From NCBI GenBank assembly GCA_965223425.1, contig OZ245003.1, forward strand, positions 1,536,001-1,600,000: 64,000 bases of DNA. Reading direction: 5' to 3'. The position numbers were made by a program, and so were the translations under genes. This DNA is from Nitrosopumilus sp. (GTDB taxonomy: Archaea > Thermoproteota > Nitrososphaeria > Nitrososphaerales > Nitrosopumilaceae). Shown piece by piece: positions 43,078-59,926 of the stretch. Below the pieces are notes generated by a model that was not told where the DNA came from, did no database searches, and was given only the letters and a program-made list of their open reading frames with translations. Positions within the stretch are counted from its first letter, which is position 1, and every line of letters begins with the position of its first letter.

Positions 43078-44760
43078 ATGACAAAGGAAGAACATCAATA
43101 CAGAGTAATATCAAAGATGGATTGCAAAAAAATATCTAAAAAACTCAGATCCACAATTTTAGAGTTAAATGTAGGTGATGAGATCAGCGTAAAATCCTTT
43201 TTTGAGAAACATAAACAGGCACTTGATTTTAAAAATGACAGGACTGCCAGAAACAGAATCGCAAATGCGTTTAAAATAGCACATGTGGAAAACACGATTG
43301 AGAGAATAAATGACCCGGCCGCTCCCGAATGGTTCAAAAAACTGGATACTGTCTCTTTCTGGCAATTACAGCTTCGCGGCAGCAAGTTCAAAAACTCAGA
43401 TGGCACAAAAACCTCCACTACAAAAACACAGTACCTGTTCCATTTGTGGCATTTCAACAAATGGATATTGGAAAAAACATTCACAATAAACACACTTCAG
43501 GCAGGCAGTGGGGGCCATTTTTTACAAAAGACAGAGGCAAGAAAATTCAGGAATGTCGAGGAGGTTCTGAGGATTCTGGAACAGCCGTTTTTCGATCAGA
43601 AAAATGTAATCCGGATCATAAAGCAGTATCTCTTGGATGCTTCTCTGCATTCGCATAAAAAGGCATCATACATGGCTATAACCAAAAACGCAATCGTGTC
43701 ATACTTTGAGAAAAACGAGTACCCACTGAAAATCATGTTCAATCCAAAGGTACCATACAATACGGAAAGTGAGGACCAGAACATGTCCCTTTCAGACCTT
43801 ATGGAGTTTTTAACTACCGGAAAGCCGTCAATATTGGAAAAAACCGTATTCCTATGCAAGTTTCAAAGGGGACTGGATGTATCAACACTTGTTGACAGGT
43901 TCAACTATGAGGCATGGGAACAGGTTGCAAAATGGTTCGGTTCAGAGAACCATGACTCGTGGGATTTGGAAAAGTGTCCGGTGCCCGTATCCCTTGTTCG
44001 GATAAAGACAGACTACAAGCACGTTGGATTTTTGGACAGGGATGCAATTGAGATGTTGCAGAAATATCTGGATTACAGAAAAACAAAAACAGAAACAGAT
44101 ATGCAAAAAGGGGAACCGTTATTTCTGAATAAATTTAACAGGGCGATATCTGCTGGATGGATGTTTAATAGTTTCTCACGCATTGCAAAAAGGGCCGGAA
44201 TCCAAAAATTTACGGAAATCAATGGCAGAAAACAGTACAAGATGGACTCGCACGAACTGCGGGACCTGCTAAAATCCACACTGATTGATTCCGGGTGCAG
44301 AATTGATGTGGCAGACCACGTCATTGGCCACAAGCCAAGGGACTCGTATGAGAAGCAGGCAATACTGTACCCCGAAACCCTGAGAAGGGAGTACTCCAAG
44401 GCCTCAAAGAGGCTCAACATATTTACAAAGTTCACAAGTGTCGTGTCAGGAAATGATGATGCAGACGAGCTGGGGGTGGAACTGCGGGAGAAACTGTCGG
44501 AACTGGAGAAGATAAGGGAAGGCAGGCTTGATGAGGAGGCGGCAAGGTATCGCAGCGAAATGGTTGCAGCAGAGCAGAAGAGGCAGATGGGGGGCCTCCT
44601 GGATACGGTAAACGAGCTCAAATCACAGATTGATTCCATGAAAAATGGCGGCCCCAAAAAACTAGAGTTTTGCTGCATTGACTGCAGTACCGTACATGGA
44701 AAACAAGAGTGTCCTTCCTGCGGTTCCATGATGAAGAGGATTTACGAGTCTTCTTCATGA
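43078..44760 (+). CDS. Tyrosine recombinase/integrase with C-terminal coiled coil and Zn ribbon
   Basis: RIKT (K), HELR (HxxR), IGH, SY (catalytic Tyr); CCIDC...CPSC tail. Confidence 0.85.
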   Translation: MTKEEHQYRVISKMDCKKISKKLRSTILELNVGDEISVKSFFEKHKQALDFKNDRTARNRIANAFKIAHVENTIERINDPAAPEWFKKLDTVSFWQLQLRGSKFKNSDGTKTSTTKTQYLFHLWHFNKWILEKTFTINTLQAGSGGHFLQKTEARKFRNVEEVLRILEQPFFDQKNVIRIIKQYLLDASLHSHKKASYMAITKNAIVSYFEKNEYPLKIMFNPKVPYNTESEDQNMSLSDLMEFLTTGKPSILEKTVFLCKFQRGLDVSTLVDRFNYEAWEQVAKWFGSENHDSWDLEKCPVPVSLVRIKTDYKHVGFLDRDAIEMLQKYLDYRKTKTETDMQKGEPLFLNKFNRAISAGWMFNSFSRIAKRAGIQKFTEINGRKQYKMDSHELRDLLKSTLIDSGCRIDVADHVIGHKPRDSYEKQAILYPETLRREYSKASKRLNIFTKFTSVVSGNDDADELGVELREKLSELEKIREGRLDEEAARYRSEMVAAEQKRQMGGLLDTVNELKSQIDSMKNGGPKKLEFCCIDCSTVHGKQECPSCGSMMKRIYESSS

Positions 44761-44918
44761 TATTGCCGGTGCGGCTTTTTCTTCCTTGATAGGAGATATC
44801 CATAGCATCCGTTGCAGAGTTTCTCACCGTCCCTTGATGCAGTCAGTTTTGATTTTTTCTGCCCTTTGCACCTGGCGCAGACAAACTCGACTGGCGTATC
44901 ATGGCGTATCAGCTTCAT
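44742..44918 (-). CDS. Small Zn-finger protein (58 aa, not in ORF track)
   Basis: Manual translation MKLIRHDTPVEFVCARCKGQKKSKLTASRDGEKLCNGCYGYLLSRKKKPHRQYHEEDS*. Confidence 0.65.
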   Translation of the reverse strand: MKLIRHDTPVEFVCARCKGQKKSKLTASRDGEKLCNGCYGYLLSRKKKPHRQYHEEDS

Positions 44919-45057
44919 TGGTGGCAGTTGATCATGATATGGTATATGACTTGTTGTGACGCCAGTTCCAAATAATGCGATTCCTGCCTAAACAGTGCCG
45001 TTAAATCCGCATTAGAAAATGAAAAAAATATTAGTGGATTTTTAATGGAGTGGGATT

Positions 45058-45384
45058 ATGGAGCCTGACTGTTATTCTGGCATGGCAACTGACCTGTTAA
45101 ACGCAGGAATGGGAGATGTCGGCAGACTGGAGTTTATACTCAAATGCATCAAAAATCAAAAGCCCTTGTACAACACTGACAAGTCATATCTGACACGAAA
45201 ACACCTGGAACTTGAAACAAAACTGGAGACATTGTCAGGGAATAAAAAACCCGGGATCGCAACACCTGAAAGCGAGTCAGACAGGATTGTGGACCGGGCA
45301 CTGTCCAGGGGAAAACATACTGGGACTGCCAGGCTTCCGGACAAGAAGGGTTCGTTTCTTGTAAGGCTGTTTGGCAGAAGATGA
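45058..45384 (+). CDS. Hypothetical protein
   Basis: 108-aa ORF; GDVGRLEFI...PLYNTDKSYL segment. Confidence 0.6.
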   Translation: MEPDCYSGMATDLLNAGMGDVGRLEFILKCIKNQKPLYNTDKSYLTRKHLELETKLETLSGNKKPGIATPESESDRIVDRALSRGKHTGTARLPDKKGSFLVRLFGRR

Positions 45385-45396
45385 CAAAAAATCCTG

Positions 45397-45837
45397 TCAG
45401 CAAAAGGACTCTATCTGTTTTTCATTCAAATGCTCGCAGATCCGTTTTTTGCAGTCATCCTGATTTTCATAAGAGATGATTTTTGCCCCGTGCTTTTCCA
45501 GCAGTCCCAGAATAAATCGGGATGGCTGGCTTGCAACGTCATACACGCATATGACGTCCTTTCCGTCCTGAATGGCCATTGCAATCTCGGCACCCATTCC
45601 AGTTGAGGGCTCGTCGATGACTGCCAGTATCTTGTCGGAGCTCTCCAAATTTTTAAAGTCCATCTCAAAAACCTGGCTGAATGACAGCTGGGTGTGGACT
45701 GCCGGGTCGCTTTTCTTGTGTGGGAGATAAGGCTCGTGTCCGCATTCTGCGCAGACTGATCCAAGCCATTCATAAAACTCGTAAATTTTTTTCCTGTCCG
45801 ATACGACCTTCAGGGCCCCGGAAATGTATATCTTCAT
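45397..45837 (-). CDS. Nucleoside 2-deoxyribosyltransferase / DNPH1-like N-glycosidase
   Basis: KIYISGAL, PYLPH, VFEMD...SD...PSTGMGAEIAMA signature. Confidence 0.82.
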   Translation of the reverse strand: MKIYISGALKVVSDRKKIYEFYEWLGSVCAECGHEPYLPHKKSDPAVHTQLSFSQVFEMDFKNLESSDKILAVIDEPSTGMGAEIAMAIQDGKDVICVYDVASQPSRFILGLLEKHGAKIISYENQDDCKKRICEHLNEKQIESFC

Positions 45838-45956
45838 AATGGGTATCGGCCGTCTGAATATAATAGTTTTTTTGTGGTTTTTGTCATTGGCCGTTTGATG
45901 TAATTTGCTGGCATGTCTTTTTTCTCCGCAAAAGGATGTCCGTTCTATTTGTAGTT

Positions 45957-47555
45957 CTATCTTGTAATCCTTTCCTCAAAGACATCGGGGTGAATTATGT
46001 GCAGCCTGCCGCCCGTAATTTCATTTATCTCATCTGAAAATAATATAATGTCCCCGTCTCCCGTTAGCAGGATCACCCTTTCGTTTTCTGCCTTTCTCAT
46101 CGCATATGCAATTATCCTCATGTCGTTTTTTGCCTTTACAAACAGTCCTTGGAGGGCCTCCTTTCTTAGTTCGACATTAAGGTGTGGAATATCGGCCAGA
46201 TGTCTCTCATCCCTCTTTTCCTTCAATGGGAGATCATTGTGTCCTTTTTTGCTCAGTATGTCCCACACGTCACCTGCCTTCATTCTGAGCCATTCTCCTG
46301 CCTCTGATGAATTGTAGTCGCTTATGAGGTAGGAGTACATGTCGTTTAACAGCTTTAGATTCTTATCGTCGTCTTTTGCCATTTTTTCGAGAACATGGTC
46401 ATATAGATCCCGGTCCTCCTCTGTCTTGGCTGTTGCGGGTTCCGGATATTTGTATTCCTTCCAGACCTCCGGTGGTATGTCCACCATGTTGAGGTGCTCT
46501 TCCATAAATTTGAAAGTTGCAGATCGACAGAGCTGTGGAAATTCCCTGCCTTTTCTGCGCGCTACAAAATCAATCAGAACATTGGCATCAACCATTATGC
46601 GCTTGCCGTATACCGTATCTAAACTGTGTGTGCCGTGCGGTTCTTTATTCGGCGTTCCCTGTGATGAGGACTGCTCGTAGTGAGTTCTTTGTGGATTGGT
46701 GTTCTGCTCCCGTGCCGGTTTGTAAGGCGTTCTGTGGTAGCCTGAGTATTGTGGATAATTCTGAGGAGGGTAGTATACTTGCACTGGATATGGAATATGT
46801 CCTCCACCCCCTCCAACTTTGCCGTATCTTTTTATTCTCCTGTAAACCAGTAGGATAATTTTAATCAGAATTATGGGGAATGATATCATTATGATTATTA
46901 TGAGGATTACGGTGAAGCCTGACCGCTGTGATTCGGTCTCAAACATTATTTCAAGAAATGACACATAGGTATCAAAGGCGTTCTGCAGGTGAACAATTGC
47001 GATGTCTTGGGCCGTATCTGCGTAGCTGCCCACCATGTCCGTGACAGGCTCTGTTGACTCGAGAAATTGGTTGAAGAGATATGTCCTTTCTCCTTCTTCT
47101 TCCTGTTGATGTCCTGCCGGTGATGCCGGACTGTCGACATAGAACGTTGCGGTTCCCACCTCGCCTCCAAGCTCCGTATACACCAGCACCTTGTATTCTC
47201 CTGCGGGTTCTGCACTCTGTCCAAATACCGTGTATGCCGCACTTGACTTCCACAGGTCATTGCGATAGTCCTCCACAAGCAGGTTTGTCTCCTTGACTAT
47301 TTCCCCGTCGTGGGTGACAGTCATGAAATAGTGGCCGTCAGACGGGTTGTAGTTTTCAATTATAACTCCGATCTGCATCACCCTCTCATTATTCTCAAGG
47401 TGCAGCGTGTCCCCGCCTGGAAAATCCACAGTGATTCTCGTATCCTCGTATGCATGTGCGGCACTGCCGTCCAAGTACGGAAGCATCATAGTAGAAGCTG
47501 CCGCAATGAAAATGAGGGACATAATACTGCCGGCGGCCGGGTCAGTGCGACACAT
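45957..47555 (-). CDS. Single-pass membrane protein with cytoplasmic PIN domain
   Basis: Signal-like N-terminus, beta-rich extracellular region, TM FTVILIIIIMISFPIILIKIILLVY+RRIKR, then IMVDANVL...EVWKE...NDMRII...LLTGDGD. Confidence 0.75.
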   Translation of the reverse strand: MCRTDPAAGSIMSLIFIAAASTMMLPYLDGSAAHAYEDTRITVDFPGGDTLHLENNERVMQIGVIIENYNPSDGHYFMTVTHDGEIVKETNLLVEDYRNDLWKSSAAYTVFGQSAEPAGEYKVLVYTELGGEVGTATFYVDSPASPAGHQQEEEGERTYLFNQFLESTEPVTDMVGSYADTAQDIAIVHLQNAFDTYVSFLEIMFETESQRSGFTVILIIIIMISFPIILIKIILLVYRRIKRYGKVGGGGGHIPYPVQVYYPPQNYPQYSGYHRTPYKPAREQNTNPQRTHYEQSSSQGTPNKEPHGTHSLDTVYGKRIMVDANVLIDFVARRKGREFPQLCRSATFKFMEEHLNMVDIPPEVWKEYKYPEPATAKTEEDRDLYDHVLEKMAKDDDKNLKLLNDMYSYLISDYNSSEAGEWLRMKAGDVWDILSKKGHNDLPLKEKRDERHLADIPHLNVELRKEALQGLFVKAKNDMRIIAYAMRKAENERVILLTGDGDIILFSDEINEITGGRLHIIHPDVFEERITR

Positions 47556-47758
47556 GCATTGTGTATTGTGGCAAGTATGTTTTAACCCATGCGATCATGC
47601 GACGGCCTATTCCAAAGGACTGTCATAATGTGAGATTTATGACTGGTTTTATGGGGCGTGGAGACGACCCGACTCTGGGATAGTGGCCACTAAATTACAA
47701 ATCCTGGATTTGGAAAAAAACTCATTTGACAGTCGGCTTTTGTGCGATTGAATTGAGG

Positions 47759-47859
47759 GGAATGAGAGGCCAACCGAAAATGATTTGTTCAGAATGCAAG
47801 CTCGTATGTGCTTACCGTCTCATCCCCATTTTTCTATATCTTAGCTAAACTTGAATTTT
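47759..47859. repeat. ~100-bp repeated element, copy 1
   Basis: Diverged direct repeat of 49235-49333 with terminal stem GGAATGAGA/TCTCATCCC. Confidence 0.85.
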
Positions 47860-47875
47860 ATGAAATTGTCCGGCT

Positions 47876-48559
47876 CTATTCTTGAATACCTCTCAACTTT
47901 TTGAGGTTATCTTCCACTTTGTTCGGATACATTACCCACAACATGTCTCCTGTTATCTTTTTCATGTACCAGTCAAGTGTGGTGTGATCTCCGTCGTTTG
48001 ATATGAAGAACACATTGCATTTTTTTGCAAGTACGGCCGCCTGTGCAAGTAATAATGTGTCCCTTCCGCTGCGGGCAGATTTCTTCAACTTGCTTAACCG
48101 TTCCCTTTTCTCTGATGCCGAACATGTCACGTACGTTCCAAGTCCTTTTTTGACAAGCCAGTCGTGTGATTCCCTTCTGTCCGGATTGTTTGCCATCCAT
48201 AGTTGACGTTTTTGTATCTTGTCAAGTTCTTCTGCATGATTGCCTATCTTGTTTTCATAGTTTTCAAACCCGTCTTTTTGCAGTCCCTCATGTAGTTTGT
48301 CCATGGCCTCTTTTGTTTTATCTTCAAACATTGCCGTCCTTTTCCTGCTTGACGGGGTGTTTTTATTGCACATTATCAGTCGTCTTTCTACCTGGCTTGC
48401 ACTGGTCTTAAAGAATACCTTCCTTTCATTTTTTAACAATGTTTTTCTTAGACGGAGTACCAGCTCCTCTTCGGCTTCCTCCCTTTCGTCTCGTATATTC
48501 TGCAATCCAAAATAATACAATAGCGTGCTTGTGTCAAATGTTATGAGCAGTTCCTTCAT
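47876..48559 (-). CDS. Soluble PIN-domain protein (paralogue of the 45957 PIN domain)
   Basis: ITFDTSTL...RDTLLLAQA...FISNDGD. Confidence 0.75.
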   Translation of the reverse strand: MKELLITFDTSTLLYYFGLQNIRDEREEAEEELVLRLRKTLLKNERKVFFKTSASQVERRLIMCNKNTPSSRKRTAMFEDKTKEAMDKLHEGLQKDGFENYENKIGNHAEELDKIQKRQLWMANNPDRRESHDWLVKKGLGTYVTCSASEKRERLSKLKKSARSGRDTLLLAQAAVLAKKCNVFFISNDGDHTTLDWYMKKITGDMLWVMYPNKVEDNLKKLRGIQE

Positions 48560-48565
48560 TTCGGG

Positions 48566-48943
48566 TCAGACCCTCGATGGATGACGCTTTAACCCATTTG
48601 TTATCAGTATCTTTTGTACATCCGGAATCTTCCATGCGTACTGTACGCGTATGCAGTCTGGTTCCTCGCAACAGTTGCACCATGAGTTTTTTCCTTTCTT
48701 AAAGTATATGGACATAATTCTGCCAATCTTGTCCAGCCCGTCATCAAGTATTTTCACATGATCATCATGCATGTTGATGTGCGTCAACCGTTCTGAATAT
48801 TCCCGAACCAATTTTTTTATCACATCTGTAACGAATTGACTCTTGTTTTGCAATCTGAAATTTTTCACACATTCCGAATCCGAGATTTTTTCAATCGAGT
48901 CCGGTAACGATTTCGGTATTTTTTCCGTTTCCAATTCTGCCAT
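48566..48943 (-). CDS. Putative RHH-type regulator/antitoxin with Cys cluster
   Basis: KSQFVTDVIKKLVREY (RHH helix-like) and WCNCCEEPDC; directly upstream of the PIN gene and divergent from the early operon. Confidence 0.55.
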   Translation of the reverse strand: MAELETEKIPKSLPDSIEKISDSECVKNFRLQNKSQFVTDVIKKLVREYSERLTHINMHDDHVKILDDGLDKIGRIMSIYFKKGKNSWCNCCEEPDCIRVQYAWKIPDVQKILITNGLKRHPSRV

Positions 48944-49234
48944 ATGTTAAATTTTACACATATGTTATTAATTTTGCATGTTTTCAGGCTGTGAAGTTAT
49001 GGGAATATGGACATGAAATACGGATCTTCACACAATCACAGATTTCTTAATGTGGTTTGGACTGATTTTGAATCTGAAGACGCATCAAATCCTGTCTTTT
49101 TGGCATCTGATCCTTTGGCCCAAATGACCATTTACAATCAAGGACGACTGGTTGACGATCTGTTTTTATCGATCTAAACCGTAATTTACGGTACTATGAT
49201 TTACAAATTTCTGGTTTTTAAGGAAAATTCTGAT

Positions 49235-49333
49235 GGAATGAGAGGCCACGAAAATGATTTGCTTAGAATGCACACTCGTATGTACTTACCATCTCATTCC
49301 AAATTTGCTGTATATTAGCTAAACTTGAATTTT
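49235..49333. repeat. ~100-bp repeated element, copy 2
   Basis: GGAATGAGA...TCTCATTCC stem plus conserved TTAGCTAAACTTGAATTTT. Confidence 0.85.
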
Positions 49334-49645
49334 GCGATCAAAGTCAACTTTTTATATTTGTCAGTCCTTATAGAGTCTGCTTAGAATTGTCACACGAGAA
49401 AAAATCGTATGTATGGGAAGTAATAGCTTGCAAATCAAGAAAGCATGGTGATATTTGGCATGCCGATAATTACATGATTGAATTTGTAGCGGCCGCAAGT
49501 CTTCCTCTCTGGGCACTGTTGTTCCAGGGAGTGATGATGGTCTGACTCTGGAACAACATCCATTAAAAATTACAAATTACAACTTTGATTTTCGTTCTCC
49601 GTCCCTCGAAAATGTGTCCGCATGTAGAGTGGAGGTCGGCACATA

Positions 49646-50423
49646 ATGGCCTCACAAAAAAGCCACATACGGCACAGTTCCTGCGGAATTGTTCTCAACA
49701 AGCTTTACTTCGTCCTATACAACCCCAAGCGAAAGGGCGGCGAGACAACTTTCTGTCAGGAGTGGATGTGGTGCAACAAATGCCGTCACCCAGTCAAAAT
49801 CAACCAGTCTGATCCGCTAACAGAGGAGATAACAAATTGATGATTCAGCCAGTAACACGCTGTTGTAAAAACAACCCAGAGTATGAGATAACGTATCCAA
49901 CAAGTGACGCAAATAAAACACAGATTGTCCGCGTGTGCAACTCCTGTTTCCACCTTGAGAAAAAATCCAAAAACTATCCGGACAGGCTGATAAAACCGTT
50001 CCGGCGCGGGGCAAAAATCATACTATGCACAAAGTGCGGAACGGACATCAAAAGGGCCGGCCGGTGCAAAAAGTGCCATCCAAAAAAGCAGGGAGAAGAC
50101 CAGAGATGACTGCCCTTAGAGCAATAATTAAAAACAAGAACGGACACGGGCACCATTATTTTCAAATAAGGCCCAGGCAAACGCGGGACGTTGCAAACGA
50201 GACGCCCCAAAGATGGTCCTGCTGGTGCGGAGAGATAGTAGAGGAGGTAGTCTAAATGAATGAGATATTATTGGAATTTCATGAGCTGAAGGAAATTGCG
50301 AACTATCTGAAAATAGCTGTCCGAAAAGGCAACACAACATCCCCGAAAATACAGGCAGTTGTGTCCCTCATGGAGAGCGGCAGGAATCCAGTCTGCAAAA
50401 TTTCAGTGGAGGAGAAGAAATGA
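49646..50423 (+). CDS. Run of four small overlapping phage-type ORFs (49646-49840, 49837-50109, 50106-50255, 50256-50423), mostly Cys-rich
   Basis: TGA/ATG-coupled ORFs with CxxC motifs. Confidence 0.6.
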
Positions 50424-51091
50424 GCCATTCTGACCCAGTTGTGCCGGACTCTGAGATTTACAAAAAATTTGACGAGCAGGACGAAATCCAGATAATCAAC
50501 TCGGAAAAATACCTCGCAAGCGGACAGTGGCTCTACGAGGTGCAGGGACAATACTCCATATCATACGACGGCATACGCGCATTTGCCTCGTGGCTTGCCA
50601 GACACGGCATCACGGTACAGACCATATCATCTGAAATCACAATGCGCGGAGAGAAAGAGGAGGGGATGTTCCACGCCAAGGTCCGCGTCAAGGAGGCCAA
50701 CACCGGCGTGATATTTGAGGGCATATCCTCCCAGTCACAATACGGCGCAAGAAAGGACGGCACAAGATACTATGATTCCACGGCAGAGACAAAGTCACAC
50801 TCCAAGGCAGAAAGAAACGCGATAAGAAAGCACATTCCTCCCGACCTGATAGCGCAGTTCATCGAGGAGACAAAAAAGACCGGCAAGGTAAAGACGCTAA
50901 AGGAGACGGGAGAATGTCACAAATCCCATCCGAACAAAAAAACCAACTCAACATGGTGCAAGTGCGAAAAACCAAAGGTGCGCTTCCGGGCAGAAACGCA
51001 AGGCAAACACGCAGGATGTCATACATGCGTTGCCTGTGATCTGCCCGTACAGAACGCAGAGCAGATGCTAAAGGATGGGGACAAAGCATGA
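50420..51091 (+). CDS. Putative single-strand annealing protein (Rad52/Sak-like) with Zn-finger tail
   Basis: FHAKVRV...EGISS...AETKSHSKAERNAIRKHIP resembles the SSAP core; early-operon context. Confidence 0.5.
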   Translation: MSHSDPVVPDSEIYKKFDEQDEIQIINSEKYLASGQWLYEVQGQYSISYDGIRAFASWLARHGITVQTISSEITMRGEKEEGMFHAKVRVKEANTGVIFEGISSQSQYGARKDGTRYYDSTAETKSHSKAERNAIRKHIPPDLIAQFIEETKKTGKVKTLKETGECHKSHPNKKTNSTWCKCEKPKVRFRAETQGKHAGCHTCVACDLPVQNAEQMLKDGDKA

Positions 51092-55727: not shown

Positions 55728-56054
55728 TTGTTCAAAAGGAAAAAAACGGCAATGAGGAGATTCAATGAGGAGACCGCACGTTGTGATGAAGCCATCTACT
55801 CTTACATGGCAATCAAAATCAGGGTGAAGTGGCTCATAGAAAAATATCCCAATGTCATAAATTACACCAGTATTATGTTCGATCCGAGTATAGACCTAAA
55901 TGACGACATGGAAATTCCGGATGATTTTCAAGAGTACTGCGAGGAAGTAGGACTGAAAATCAAGGCCGTTTCCAAAAAAATGTCACACCGCCTCAAATCT
56001 GAATTCTACTATCGAATCAATTTCCACGTAATCGAGAATGATGCCGCAAAATGA
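55728..56054 (+). CDS. Hypothetical element protein
   Basis: 108-aa ORF. Confidence 0.55.
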   Translation: MFKRKKTAMRRFNEETARCDEAIYSYMAIKIRVKWLIEKYPNVINYTSIMFDPSIDLNDDMEIPDDFQEYCEEVGLKIKAVSKKMSHRLKSEFYYRINFHVIENDAAK

Positions 56055-56811
56055 ATGCCAAATTTGTCCCACAAATAATTTGAAAGAGAGGAACCGCATC
56101 CAACTCCAAATCAACCCGCAATACCTGGAGCTGGTTCCACGGGCAGAACCCAAACAGCTGAGAGGCCTGAAAAATTCCATGCAGAAGGACGGACAGCAGG
56201 TCAAAATAATCACAAACCCCGAAGGCGTGATCCTTGATGGCCACACAAGGTTTATGATCTGCAAGGAGCTGCACATGGAACCAAAATATGTAGTCAGGAA
56301 ATTCGACTCACCTGAAAAAGAAAAAGAGTTTGTAGTCTCTGTGAATCTCAACCGGAGACATATGTCGCTGTTTGAGCGGGGGGAGTGTATGCTGGAGTGG
56401 TGGAAGGAGGAGAAGAGAAGAAGCAGAATCGAGGGTGGATTTTTAGCAAAAGCGACAAGAAATACAGGAATAACCCACGGTGGAACAGTAAACGGAAAAA
56501 AGGACAGGCTGTTAAACAGGTTTTCGAAAATCATTGGAACAAGTCCGACCAGCACCTATGAACTGATATGGCTGATGCTTCACGCCCCTGAAAGCGAAAA
56601 GGAAAAACTGAGAAACGGGGAGATCGCCATTGATACGGCATTTTTGAAATTGGCAAAGCCGAAAAGAAAGTCCAGAAAAGACTACAAGAGGGATGGCAGG
56701 GTCTATCTGGCATACCCAAAATGTCTGAACTGTGCCAGACCGACAGTTGTGGCAAAGGACTGTCATGTGCACGGCACGTTGTGCTGCCTAAAATGCGGAT
56801 GGGGAATCTAA
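56038..56811 (+). CDS. ParB/Srx-like N-terminal domain protein with C-terminal Cys/His cluster
   Basis: LKNSMQKDG...ILDGHTR...NLNRRHMS; tail CLNC...CHVHGTLCCLKCGWGI. Confidence 0.82.
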   Translation: MMPQNECQICPTNNLKERNRIQLQINPQYLELVPRAEPKQLRGLKNSMQKDGQQVKIITNPEGVILDGHTRFMICKELHMEPKYVVRKFDSPEKEKEFVVSVNLNRRHMSLFERGECMLEWWKEEKRRSRIEGGFLAKATRNTGITHGGTVNGKKDRLLNRFSKIIGTSPTSTYELIWLMLHAPESEKEKLRNGEIAIDTAFLKLAKPKRKSRKDYKRDGRVYLAYPKCLNCARPTVVAKDCHVHGTLCCLKCGWGI

Positions 56812-57549
56812 GTGCAAAAAACGAAGATAAAACCGAGAATCAATGCGGCATATTACGACTTTATCCCAAGACCAAACGCAAAAGACCGAAGAAGACTGAA
56901 GGAATCAATCAGAAGGAACGGGGTCGAGATTCCATTAATCCTGAACAGGGACGGATTCATCATGGATGGCCATACCAGATATGAAATCTGTCAGGAACTG
57001 GGAATAACTGACATTCCGACTGAGATCAAGGAATTTTCTGATGAAGAGTCAGAAAGAAAGTTTGTGATAATGACAAATCTGTCAAGAAGGCATCTGAACA
57101 GGTTTCAAAAAATCGAGCTGTCACTGCCACTGCTTGAACTGGAAGAGAAAAGGGCAAAAGAGAGGATGAATTGGAGAAAATTACATCCCGAACTGGCAAA
57201 GATCAGCGGGAATGGACATGCAACCAAAATGAAGGGTAGGATCAAAGAGGGGGGTGCAGCTGAGATTTTTGGCAAAAAAATAGGAATAGGAAAGACGACT
57301 GTAGCTTACTTCAATTACCTGAAGAAAAACGCGCCAACAGAACTGCTCCTCAAGTGCAGAAACGGCGAGATTGCCATCCAGAATGCCTATTATCTTCATG
57401 TGGGACAAAGACTGATGTCCTCAGGGGTGCGGCCCGAAAAGACAGTCGACTTTTGTCCCAAATGCAACTCAAAGACTGCAAGGCCAAAGCGGACAAAATG
57501 CCACGTGCACAAGTGGTTCTGCTGCGAGCACTGCAAGTGGGGGATATGA
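56812..57549 (+). CDS. ParB/Srx-like paralogue with C-terminal Cys/His cluster
   Basis: LKESIRRNG...IMDGHTR...NLSRRHLN; tail CPKC...CHVHKWFCCEHCKWGI. Confidence 0.82.
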   Translation: MQKTKIKPRINAAYYDFIPRPNAKDRRRLKESIRRNGVEIPLILNRDGFIMDGHTRYEICQELGITDIPTEIKEFSDEESERKFVIMTNLSRRHLNRFQKIELSLPLLELEEKRAKERMNWRKLHPELAKISGNGHATKMKGRIKEGGAAEIFGKKIGIGKTTVAYFNYLKKNAPTELLLKCRNGEIAIQNAYYLHVGQRLMSSGVRPEKTVDFCPKCNSKTARPKRTKCHVHKWFCCEHCKWGI

Positions 57550-58565: not shown

Positions 58566-58796
58566 ATGAAGATAAAACTATCCCAAATCAGTACGGGGGG
58601 GAGGATCAGAAAAGACATGGGTGACATTGAGGAGCTTGCAGAGAGTATCAAAAACGAGGGATTGTTGTCGCCGATACTGTTGATGAAGACTGGCAAGAAC
58701 AGATACAGACTTCTTGCCGGCAAGCGAAGACTGAAAGCGCACAAACTGCTGCGGCTGACAACAATTGAGGCAATAATCAAAGAGAGACCAGCATGA
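58566..58796 (+). CDS. Stand-alone ParB N-terminal domain
   Basis: IEELAESIKNEGLLSPI...LLAGKRRLKA. Confidence 0.85.
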   Translation: MKIKLSQISTGGRIRKDMGDIEELAESIKNEGLLSPILLMKTGKNRYRLLAGKRRLKAHKLLRLTTIEAIIKERPA

Positions 58797-59926
58797 AGAA
58801 ACTGTCCAGAACAGAACTCCTGAAGAACGTACCATATCCTCTCAGGATCGAGATAATCGAAAACGAGTTTCGAATCGATCTCTCCGAAAGCGACAAGGCG
58901 GATCTTGCAGAAAGGATAAGGCCGTATCTCAAAGACCAGACAAAGCCTGGAAGGCGTACGGACTTGGAGAAATCAACCTCGGGCAAACATTTGCCCGAGG
59001 TTGCGCCAGAAAGGGTCAATGAAAAAATCGGCAAAATCCTCAAAGAAAGTAAGGAAACGGTCAGAAAAAGGGACAAGGTTTTTGAAAGTGTCGACGAGGA
59101 CATGAAAAACGACCTGAATTCCGGTGCAAAGTCACTGCATTCGGCATACCAGCAGACTGTGGCGCGACAGAATGCAACAAAGAAAATCCCGCCACTGCCA
59201 TCTGGAAAATTCAACCATATAGTAGAGGATCCGGGATGGGATTTTGCCAACAAAAACATCGGGGGCTCCGGGGAGTCAGGCGCGTCATACAAATACCGGA
59301 CACAGCCTACAGCCAAGATTGCAAGGATCCCAATATTAGACATAGCAGCTGATGACGCAATACTGTACATGTGGACGACAAACCAGCACCTGATAACCGG
59401 CTCCATGCTGGCAAGCGAGTATCATGCAATCCTGGAGGACAACAGACTGAAGCAAACCAAAACCAAAAGCGAGTCAAAAATAAATAAACTCAAGGTCGAG
59501 ATTAGGGAAAAGAAGCGGCTGCTTAAGGACACGCTGGGAAAGCAAAAGGTGCAAAGCGATGCGCTGTCCGTAATGCACTGCCACGGGTTTGCCCCCAAAT
59601 ACATCATAACGTGGGAAAAGGAGGGAAAGGAGGGATGGGGCGGCTACGGCTTCAACAATGTGACCGAGCACCTGTTGATCGGAGTCAGGGGAAAGGTGGC
59701 GGCATTTGGCCTGAGCGAAAAGACCATAGTAAAAACAAAATACCGTCGCAATTCACACTCTGAAAAGCCAGATGCAATGTGGCATTTAATAGAAAAGTGC
59801 GCCAAAACGCAGAGATGGAAGGGCAGAAAACTGGAACTCAACTGCAGAACGCCAAGAAGGGGATGGCATCCGCACGGTGATCAAATCGCCGCAAATGACA
59901 TTGCTGAATGGAAAAAACTGAGATAG
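58793..59926 (+). CDS. ParB C-terminal half fused to MT-A70-family adenine methyltransferase
   Basis: IENEFRIDL, PGRRTDL; DPGW, LYMWTTN, ITWEK, TEHLLIGVRG, HSEKP, KLELNCR. Confidence 0.85.
   Translation: MKKLSRTELLKNVPYPLRIEIIENEFRIDLSESDKADLAERIRPYLKDQTKPGRRTDLEKSTSGKHLPEVAPERVNEKIGKILKESKETVRKRDKVFESVDEDMKNDLNSGAKSLHSAYQQTVARQNATKKIPPLPSGKFNHIVEDPGWDFANKNIGGSGESGASYKYRTQPTAKIARIPILDIAADDAILYMWTTNQHLITGSMLASEYHAILEDNRLKQTKTKSESKINKLKVEIREKKRLLKDTLGKQKVQSDALSVMHCHGFAPKYIITWEKEGKEGWGGYGFNNVTEHLLIGVRGKVAAFGLSEKTIVKTKYRRNSHSEKPDAMWHLIEKCAKTQRWKGRKLELNCRTPRRGWHPHGDQIAANDIAEWKKLR

Follow-up and report, generated by a model that had tools for sequence, protein, structure and literature searches.

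A predicted single-pass membrane protein with a C-terminal PIN domain beside a distant soluble paralogue in Nitrosopumilus

To our knowledge, PIN nucleases are among the commonest enzymes of biological conflict and RNA processing, and those that have been described are almost all soluble. We analysed a stretch of 64,000 nucleotides (nt) of a Nitrosopumilus genome (contig OZ245003.1, positions 1,536,001 to 1,600,000; the whole stretch is called the window below), in which the gene for a predicted membrane protein with a C-terminal PIN domain, P0002, lies next to the gene for a soluble PIN protein, P0003, which is itself preceded by a small gene, P0004. An earlier reading of the letters alone, the original prediction, had placed three genes here, and open reading frames on the minus strand coincide exactly with its positions (Table 1). 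Receptor-like single-pass PIN proteins of this kind recur on mobile elements of ammonia-oxidising archaea, which are globally abundant and whose defence and mobile-element biology is little known.

Several described systems resemble P0002 in part. IRE1 combines a lumenal sensor, a transmembrane segment, a kinase domain and a KEN RNase domain, and the RNase is turned on by oligomerisation. P0002 is like IRE1 in logic only, with a putative sensor on the outer side, one transmembrane helix and a predicted cytoplasmic RNase, and activation by clustering is conjecture in its case; unlike IRE1, P0002 has no kinase or KEN domain, its nuclease fold is unrelated, and there is no homology between the two. 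RNase Y and RNase E are housekeeping RNases tethered to the membrane, with folds other than PIN, and share with P0002 the placing of an RNase at the membrane. The entry- and surface-exclusion proteins of conjugative elements are small membrane proteins encoded beside transfer genes, a setting comparable to that of the P0002 relative in genome G250 described below; none known to us has a nuclease domain.

Within the PIN superfamily, VapC toxins are like P0002 and P0003 in fold over the whole chain (VapC11, PDB 6a7v; Z 11.5-12.9, root-mean-square deviation (rmsd) 2.6-2.7), in the canonical acidic positions and in the C-terminal pattern D..I.A.A...hhh(S/T).D.D. They differ in that the PIN domains of P0002 and P0003 have about 215 residues rather than about 130, the excess coming from a helical insert with a Trp/Lys pair, and in that P0002 and P0003 lack a conserved antitoxin partner and P0002 is predicted to be membrane-anchored. 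The group PIN.COG4956 (YacL-like) joins a PIN domain and a TRAM domain to four N-terminal transmembrane helices, and its function is given as unknown in the part of the superfamily survey on which we draw (Matelska et al. 2017, PMC5499597). According to that part, its PIN domain is fixed to the membrane as in P0002, whereas the group has four transmembrane helices, a TRAM domain and no extracytoplasmic domain, and is mostly bacterial (PMC5499597). P0002 has instead a signal peptide, an ectodomain, one transmembrane helix and a long linker, with no TRAM match in Pfam, and so lacks the four helices plus TRAM that mark the COG4956/YacL type. We found no description of a single-pass PIN protein with an ectodomain in the literature searched; the supplements of PMC5499597, which hold per-sequence transmembrane predictions, could list some. 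The architecture of P0002 looks undescribed.

Domain layout and predicted active site

P0002 is predicted to be a type I single-pass membrane protein, in which the signal peptide is followed by a small extracellular beta-sandwich, a transmembrane helix, a flexible linker and a cytoplasmic VapC-like PIN domain (Table 1). Its frame is unbroken across 532 codons. On the Kyte-Doolittle scale the protein has two hydrophobic segments, at residues 7-25 and about 210-241, the peak being 3.14. The 15 residues after the second segment contain five Lys or Arg and no Asp or Glu, whereas the 15 before it contain one and three, respectively. These charges obey the positive-inside rule, and accordingly the C-terminus is predicted to lie in the cytoplasm. 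The signal-peptide region pairs in a BLASTP alignment with an AYA|DEN stretch of a secreted homologue (L069). In the AlphaFold2 (AF2) model, made with a 21-row alignment (A4), residues 40-140 form eight strands at a predicted local distance difference test (pLDDT) score of just 40-80, and their best fold matches are 6oe6_B (Z 8.1) and 3d33_B (Z 7.9) by VIA-align and 3d33_B (E 3e-3) by Foldseek. The linker of about 65 residues (248-313) has a high content of P, G, Y and Q, and the domain that follows it (residues 319-531) is modelled confidently, with pLDDT 80-97. These data fit a predicted topology with the ectodomain outside and the C-terminal domain in the cytoplasm.

The original prediction had proposed this same layout, including the positive-inside flank, and hydropathy, flank charges and model all agree with it at the level of prediction. 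The motifs it had quoted (VDANV, GDGD, RRIKR, EWLRMKAG/DWLVKKGL and two C-terminal tails) are all present in the translations, and the C-terminal domain that it had read as a cytoplasmic PIN domain both models as PIN and is predicted to lie inside. As for the integrity of the DNA, contigs of the sequencing runs X1 and X2, which come from different studies, carry the whole stretch with zero differing letters, and either run may be the source of the assembly; contigs of runs X5 and X6 cover the locus in pieces only.

The PIN assignment comes from the predicted structures, which were compared by VIA-align with about 48,000 PDB chains. The P0003 model (pLDDT 83; predicted template modelling score, pTM, 0.82) matches 6a7v_A, VapC11 of M. 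tuberculosis, over 134 of 135 residues (Z 11.5, rmsd 2.6), and residues 318-524 of P0002 match the same chain over 132 of 135 (Z 12.9, rmsd 2.7). PIN domains make up nearly all of the top 40 rows for P0003 and also lead the list for P0002. Foldseek gave a weak result for P0003 (best E 0.027, with PIN entries at the top of the list) and a weak one in the same direction for the PIN part of P0002. Both AF2 models have the alpha/beta/alpha fold with a parallel five-stranded sheet, and the PIN call that had been made by eye is borne out by their matches to VapC chains.

Four acidic positions can be located in each model (D323, E366, D478 and D500 in P0002; D9, E58, D167 and D189 in P0003): the first closes beta1, the second lies in the helix that follows beta2, the third opens the helix leading into beta4, and the fourth comes behind beta4. 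In alignment A4 there is no variation at W422, D478 and D500 and hardly any at K426 and D502; the column of D323 holds Asp in most of the rows that cover it and Glu in two, and E366, read by eye, is mostly retained. All four acidic positions are present in P0002, in P0003 and in every membrane-anchored relative that was read. Judging from the models, the acidic residues of P0002 and P0003 would occupy the catalytic places of a PIN domain. The roughly 80 extra residues are helical and come between beta3 and the helix of the third Asp; the Trp/Lys pair lies in them.

Profile libraries miss both proteins. Neither P0002 nor P0003 has a Pfam PIN match at E <= 1; P0002, P0003 and P0004 have no match in Pfam, PADLOC, PHROGs or NCBIfam; and a search of PDB sequences returned nothing for P0002 and one chance-level row (E 1.6) for P0003. 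Among 21 members of the family, Pfam recognises PIN_4 in nine, PIN in five, PIN_8 in three and PIN_12 in three, at a best E of 3e-6, and one relative (L015) passes the Pfam cut-offs for PIN_4 (24.9 against 21.9 bits) and PIN (24.8 against 23.6 bits).

Table 1. Positions in the window of P0002 and its segments, and of neighbouring features.
Feature	Position	Strand	Basis
P0002, 532 residues, predicted single-pass membrane protein with C-terminal PIN domain	45957..47555, including stop codon	-	open reading frame, translation, AF2 model, fold matches
P0002 residues 1-35, N-terminal hydrophobic segment, read as signal peptide ending AHA|YED	47451..47555	-	hydropathy; cleavage inferred
P0002 residues 36-142, beta-rich ectodomain, tentatively an immunoglobulin (Ig)-like beta-sandwich	47130..47450	-	AF2 model, VIA-align, Foldseek
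P0002 residues 143-212, acidic unstructured spacer and juxtamembrane helix	46920..47129	-	pLDDT <50 at 144-183; helix 182-208
P0002 residues 213-237, predicted transmembrane helix, then YRRIKRYGK	46845..46919	-	Kyte-Doolittle peak 3.14; model helix 214-245
P0002 residues 238-313, positive stop-transfer stretch, then P/G/Y/Q-rich disordered linker	46617..46844	-	composition; pLDDT <50 at 248-313
P0002 residues 314-532, PIN domain with helical insert; D323, E366, D478, D500 (and D502), W422, K426	45960..46616	-	pLDDT 80-97, VapC11 match
P0003, 227 residues, soluble PIN paralogue (D9, E58, D167, D189, D191; W134, K138)	47876..48559	-	model, VapC11 match, hhalign
P0004, 125 residues, 6 nt upstream of P0003; widespread Nitrosopumilaceae family with invariant His/Cys; ribbon-helix-helix (RHH)-like N-terminus by eye only	48566..48943	-	
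Direct repeat copy A, about 100 nt, imperfect	47759..47859	.	starts 17 nt downstream of P0003 stop
Direct repeat copy B	49235..49333	.	about 290 nt upstream of P0004 start
Tyrosine recombinase/integrase, 560 residues, convergent with P0002, at the left edge of the GC-shifted tract	43078..44760	+	Pfam Phage_integrase 1.3e-8; NCBIfam XerA-like weak
Nucleoside 2-deoxyribosyltransferase-like gene, 146 residues, 119 nt downstream of P0002	45397..45837	-	PF05014 8e-8, 32.9 bits against cut-off 28.8; PHROG 5.6e-6

A PIN subfamily in Nitrososphaeria

P0002 and P0003 belong to a previously unnamed PIN subfamily, which is characterised by a helical insert of 70-110 residues, an invariant Trp and a nearly invariant Lys. 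By hhalign, the PIN group of P0002 and the family of P0003 match with a probability of 97.2% (E 4.2e-11, 96 columns), and a profile built from the PIN part of P0002 and two relatives (A3) finds P0003 within the genome at E 2.6e-7; plain BLASTP aligns the last 39 residues only (E 0.002). The paralogy that the original prediction had seen by eye is borne out by these matches, and the membrane-anchored P0002 and the adjacent soluble P0003 are shown to be deep, distant paralogues. In the 2.64-Mb genome (G000) they are the only family members found by searches with A3 and with the 21-row profile, and they lie 320 nt apart. P0003 has four homologues in ENA, at 45-50% identity. In a maximum-likelihood tree P0002 and P0003 are not sisters, since P0003 falls in a well-supported clade of seven stand-alone soluble rows with P0002 outside it. 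A recent tandem duplication was considered as their origin and rejected, considering the identity of about 17% (A4), the different subclades and a flanking repeat that is 86% identical. A complex prediction of the PIN part of P0002 with P0003 gave no verdict (score 0.00, no controls) and is evidence neither way.

Besides Nitrosopumilaceae, a few other genomes of the class Nitrososphaeria were found to have the subfamily. The A3 profile has matches in 23 of 401 sampled genomes of the class (by family, and leaving G000 aside, 19/223, 2/78 and 1/9). With the 21-row profile, 26 of 401 family genomes have matches at E <= 1e-5, eight of them through the ectodomain part only, which leaves 18 with the PIN part. 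HMMER with the PIN part over 1.84 billion representative proteins gave three weak matches, among which P0009 and P0010 proved to be true relatives. A word-indexed search of 5.8 billion proteins, run with the single protein and with a three-row alignment (A5), returned P0002 only; it missed P0010 too and so gives no evidence of rarity. Scans of metagenome contigs with P0002 and P0010 found no relative.

The layout of P0002 is seen again in other members. P0010, a metagenomic protein of 499 residues that matches the PIN part of P0002 at E 1e-8, has a signal peptide, a beta domain, a transmembrane helix, a long linker and a PIN domain. Proteins from genomes G250 (L014, 635-645 residues) and G422 (L067, 639 residues) follow the same order and place two Ig/MG2-like domains on the outer side; they are close kin in the tree, which gives three membrane lineages including that of P0002. 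As the layout occurs in two other genomes and one metagenomic protein, the fusion in P0002 is not a one-off join. An assembly chimera was likewise rejected, the same architecture being present in other genomes. Concerning the recurrence on which the original prediction was to be judged, the fusion was thus found elsewhere (G250, G422, P0010), whereas the gene trio was not, either at nine P0004 loci or beside the relatives of P0003 that were read. With the C-terminal domain modelling as PIN, its predicted place inside the cell and the fusion present elsewhere, none of the outcomes that the original prediction had named as refuting it was seen. A mirror form exists in genome G110 (L015), where a PIN domain is followed by a linker, a transmembrane helix and a C-terminal domain. 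Same-strand pairs of PIN paralogues are found in genomes G172 and G292, and other members have C-terminal extensions.

In some Nitrosopumilaceae the PIN domain of this subfamily is joined through a linker to ribosomal protein S17e (P0009/L003:1468-2073 in G203; L021:1282-2484 in G305), with Pfam Ribosomal_S17e matches of 1.3e-10 and 2.7e-17. A literature search on S17e together with the PIN domain found no description of an S17e-PIN fusion. The S17e gene of G000 itself (L084:1210-1812) lacks a PIN domain and carries instead a long tail of acidic repeats. Split or stop-interrupted copies of soluble PIN genes were seen in G250 (L038), in a Nitrosopumilus metagenome-assembled genome (L041) and in G281 (L005); in G250 an intact copy (L037) and the broken one have similar upstream sequence, as if they lay in a repeated element.

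The ectodomain of P0002 has relatives of its own. It is 31-34% identical (E 9e-15 to 8e-21) to secreted proteins of about 200 residues in other genera, one of these matches being 33% at E 8e-21, and no stand-alone copy was detectable in G000 with that query. These proteins (L069:1477-2079, L070, L073-L078) are part of a secreted family of about 200-220 residues with a signal peptide, a beta domain of the P0002 type, an acidic linker and the C-terminal motif IPxWVxNIFxWYAxxxISExELLxALxYLIxxGII. The secreted family is present in 8 of 401 family genomes.

Genomic setting and possible functions

The locus has several marks of an integrated element. The guanine-cytosine (GC) content, which is 0.34-0.40 upstream, rises at about 44 kb to 0.39-0.48 and stays there up to the window's end; an integrase gene stands at the left edge of the tract so shifted (Table 1), and the distribution of the PIN part is patchy (18/401). 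The tract of raised GC (1.58-1.76 Mb) reaches about 1.76 Mb of the contig, whose mean is 0.41. No virus hallmark genes were seen in the region of the locus. In G250 the gene for the membrane PIN protein shares a same-strand run with genes for an Eco57I-like methylase and an M10-like peptidase as well as for a VirB4-like ATPase and a VirD4-like protein; G000 has VirB4 and VirD4 genes 50-56% identical to these, 94 kb downstream of the locus and inside the raised tract. In G422 the corresponding gene lies about 345 nt from an integrase fragment, in the same convergent order as in the window, and this fragment is 58% identical to residues 402-482 of the window integrase. The mobile-element setting named in the original prediction is upheld by the integrase, the GC step and these neighbours of the relatives.

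The transfer genes of G000 are part of a conjugation-like module outside the window (L085, G000:C1:1664000-1684000), with a VirB4-like protein of 619 residues, a VirD4-like protein of 906 residues, two surface proteins of about 1,040 residues and a small membrane protein. The module and the locus could belong to a single, very large integrative conjugative element, or the module could be a separate one.

P0004 belongs to a family of proteins of about 130 residues that is found in 352 of 401 family genomes (345 of 394 without the unpublished genomes G496, G420, G550, G132, G327, G283 and G231, all of which have matches and none of which contributes a locus to this description) and in 235 of 246 high-quality ones. 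G000 has the core copy elsewhere (C1:2246448-2246672), and some genomes have closer extra copies (L044-L052). Residues H55, H62, C89, C92 and C97 are invariant in the family, which suggests metal binding, and judging from sequence P0004 looks like an uncharacterised Zn-binding regulator. As to a DNA-binding fold of the kinds recognised in antitoxins (RHH, AbrB, HTH, PHD), Pfam had no match in ten members, and a family profile found nothing convincing among PDB sequences. The RHH-like label that P0004 had been given was not confirmed by Pfam or by PDB sequences, the one lead being a weak one from an ESM-Atlas cluster with RHH_1 in 14% of its members.

P0004 precedes P0003 on the same strand with a gap of 6 nt, so that a small upstream gene and tight spacing are found as in type II VapBC modules; recurrence as a pair in other genomes, a further mark of such modules, was not seen. 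None of the nine loci of the closest P0004 homologues has a PIN-family gene within about 1.5 kb. Conversely, no P0004 homologue lies next to the P0003 relative at L032 or, among the open reading frames read, upstream of those at L037, L038 and L040-L042, and neither a P0004 homologue nor a membrane PIN gene stands beside the P0003 relatives at the loci read. Read by eye, a TATA-like box precedes the P0004 ATG by 22-32 nt, and the 320-nt gap between P0003 and P0002 contains a T7 run and an A/T-rich box. A direct repeat brackets P0004 and P0003 (85-nt core at 86% identity by repeat finding, about 100 nt by blastn); these two copies are the only ones genome-wide, each has an internal inverted repeat, and the repeat is also present in contigs of sequencing runs. 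Its folding is no better than that of shuffled sequence (z -0.7 to -2.4), and Rfam has no match within 44700-50500. The repeat, the two gaps, the T7 run and the A/T-rich boxes suggest that P0004 and P0003 form a cassette and a transcription unit apart from P0002.

On models and alignments, we regard as solid the prediction that a mobile element here encodes a PIN nuclease, P0002, that is plausibly catalytic, is tethered to the membrane on its inner face and has a small domain on the outer side. Our best guess at its role, which we put at a probability of roughly 40%, is that of a membrane-gated nuclease that takes part in element-element or virus-host conflict. P0002 would be carried as cargo by an integrated element, which may be conjugative. 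When something happens at the ectodomain (contact with a virion or a mating partner, for instance, or a disturbance of the cell surface), the oligomeric state of the protein would change or the tethered PIN domain would come free; PIN nucleases usually work as dimers. The target of the PIN domain would be RNA or incoming nucleic acid, which it would cut directly beneath the membrane in a role of exclusion, defence or addiction. P0004 and P0003 would most likely be a separate transcription unit of a small Zn-binding regulator and a soluble PIN nuclease, maybe imported as a cassette between the two repeat copies.

A more specific version is unlikely in our estimate, namely that archaeal mobile elements encode in such proteins a one-component kind of transmembrane receptor nuclease, whose divergent Ig-like ectodomain senses a surface event and switches the PIN domain on, with P0003 as a second effector or modulator. 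The triggers that come into question for it (virus adsorption, contact with a conjugation partner, damage to the S-layer), with a signal passing through the transmembrane helix and linker, are conjecture. What the original prediction had observed is confirmed and its interpretation is supported in part: a receptor-nuclease or defence function is plausible, whereas virion sensing, abortive infection and a role of P0003 as co-effector or inhibitor are conjectural. If the ectodomain gates the nuclease, P0002 would be a compact transmembrane signalling nuclease that links cell-surface events to the destruction of nucleic acid, and as a receptor nuclease it would represent the logic of IRE1 in archaea and, with it, a new class of systems for exclusion or abortive infection. 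Even without gating, the PIN subfamily missed by profile libraries, the S17e fusions and the adjacency to conjugation genes are of use for annotating Nitrososphaeria.

Several results weigh against the membrane-gated reading. No PADLOC-DB 2.0 family matches P0002, P0003, P0004 or the downstream gene at E <= 1, and scans of viral contigs found no family member. The ectodomain is modelled with low confidence, and ligand binding by it is conjectural. The membrane forms are not one clade in the tree, where they require three changes, no better than with shuffled labels; a shared receptor ancestry is therefore unproven, the tree being compatible with one origin as well as with several. The trio of P0004, P0003 and P0002 occurs in no other genome examined, and the broken family copies are as expected for dispensable cargo. 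The VirB4 and VirD4 genes, at their distance of 94 kb, may belong to a different element, and a comparison of the left flank with the next 215 kb showed no att-like direct repeat of at least 16 nt. Among the sequencing runs listed, no RNA run holds the locus.

There are other accounts of P0002. One, to which we give a minority share, is that the transmembrane helix serves to station a constitutive or partner-regulated PIN domain at the inner membrane face without any signalling, where it would act on nucleic acid crossing the envelope, such as DNA or RNA of conjugative or viral origin, or on membrane-proximal transcripts; the ectodomain would just anchor it to the S-layer or surface. Membrane PIN proteins without a sensor are on record (PIN.COG4956, in the part of PMC5499597 drawn on here), and the relative in G250 stands in a same-strand array with VirB4-like and VirD4-like transfer genes. 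Given its homology to small secreted proteins with a conserved C-terminal motif, the ectodomain would seem to be structural rather than ligand-binding, and the mirror topology of L015 suggests that membrane location, not a fixed order from sensor to effector, is what recurs. A PIN nuclease that is always on, however, tends to be toxic, and no partner that might inhibit it is apparent; a long linker and an extracellular domain recur in all three membrane lineages, which exceeds the need of a bare anchor. It is quite improbable, in our view, that the PIN domains are non-catalytic, serving for binding or as a scaffold, for example on ribosomes or RNA, or that P0002 is a decaying chimera without function. 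The S17e fusions would suit a binding role, and the beta1 Glu in two rows, the broken copies and the lack of a Pfam PIN match in P0002 and P0003 also speak for this account, but the four acidic positions are retained in both proteins and in the membrane-anchored relatives read, and the P0002 frame is intact over its 532 codons and identical in contigs of runs X1 and X2, either of which may be the source of the assembly.

A further account concerns P0004 and P0003 and is compatible with any of the others. They may be a VapBC-like toxin-antitoxin or regulator-nuclease pair unrelated to P0002, the two PIN genes being neighbours only through the build-up of mobile-element cargo here, which we consider somewhat unlikely. 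The 6-nt gap after a small upstream gene is as in type II toxin-antitoxin operons, the repeat encloses just these two genes in the manner of a cassette, a gap of 320 nt with a T-run parts P0003 from P0002, and P0003 belongs to a well-supported soluble clade of seven rows without P0002. On the other hand, the P0004 family is near-universal (352/401), with no PIN-family gene at the nine closest homologue loci, and no P0004-like gene lies upstream of the P0003 relatives read; P0003, with 227 residues and a large insert, is unlike compact VapC toxins; and the only two members in the genome lie 320 nt apart, with the paralogue pairs of G172 and G292 hinting at linkage.

Neighbouring genes

The genes downstream in the window include ParB-like, MT-A70 methylase, NUDIX, GNAT and PAPS-reductase-like genes. 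PADLOC, run on ten neighbouring proteins, gave two matches only, both to type II methyltransferase models. At 56038-57549 and 58793-59926 of the window there are two adjacent ParB-N-like genes and an MT-A70-type methyltransferase (PADLOC MTase_II 1.9e-32), for which no restriction partner was identified. ParB-N-like genes with an MT-A70 methyltransferase are typical cargo of mobile elements.

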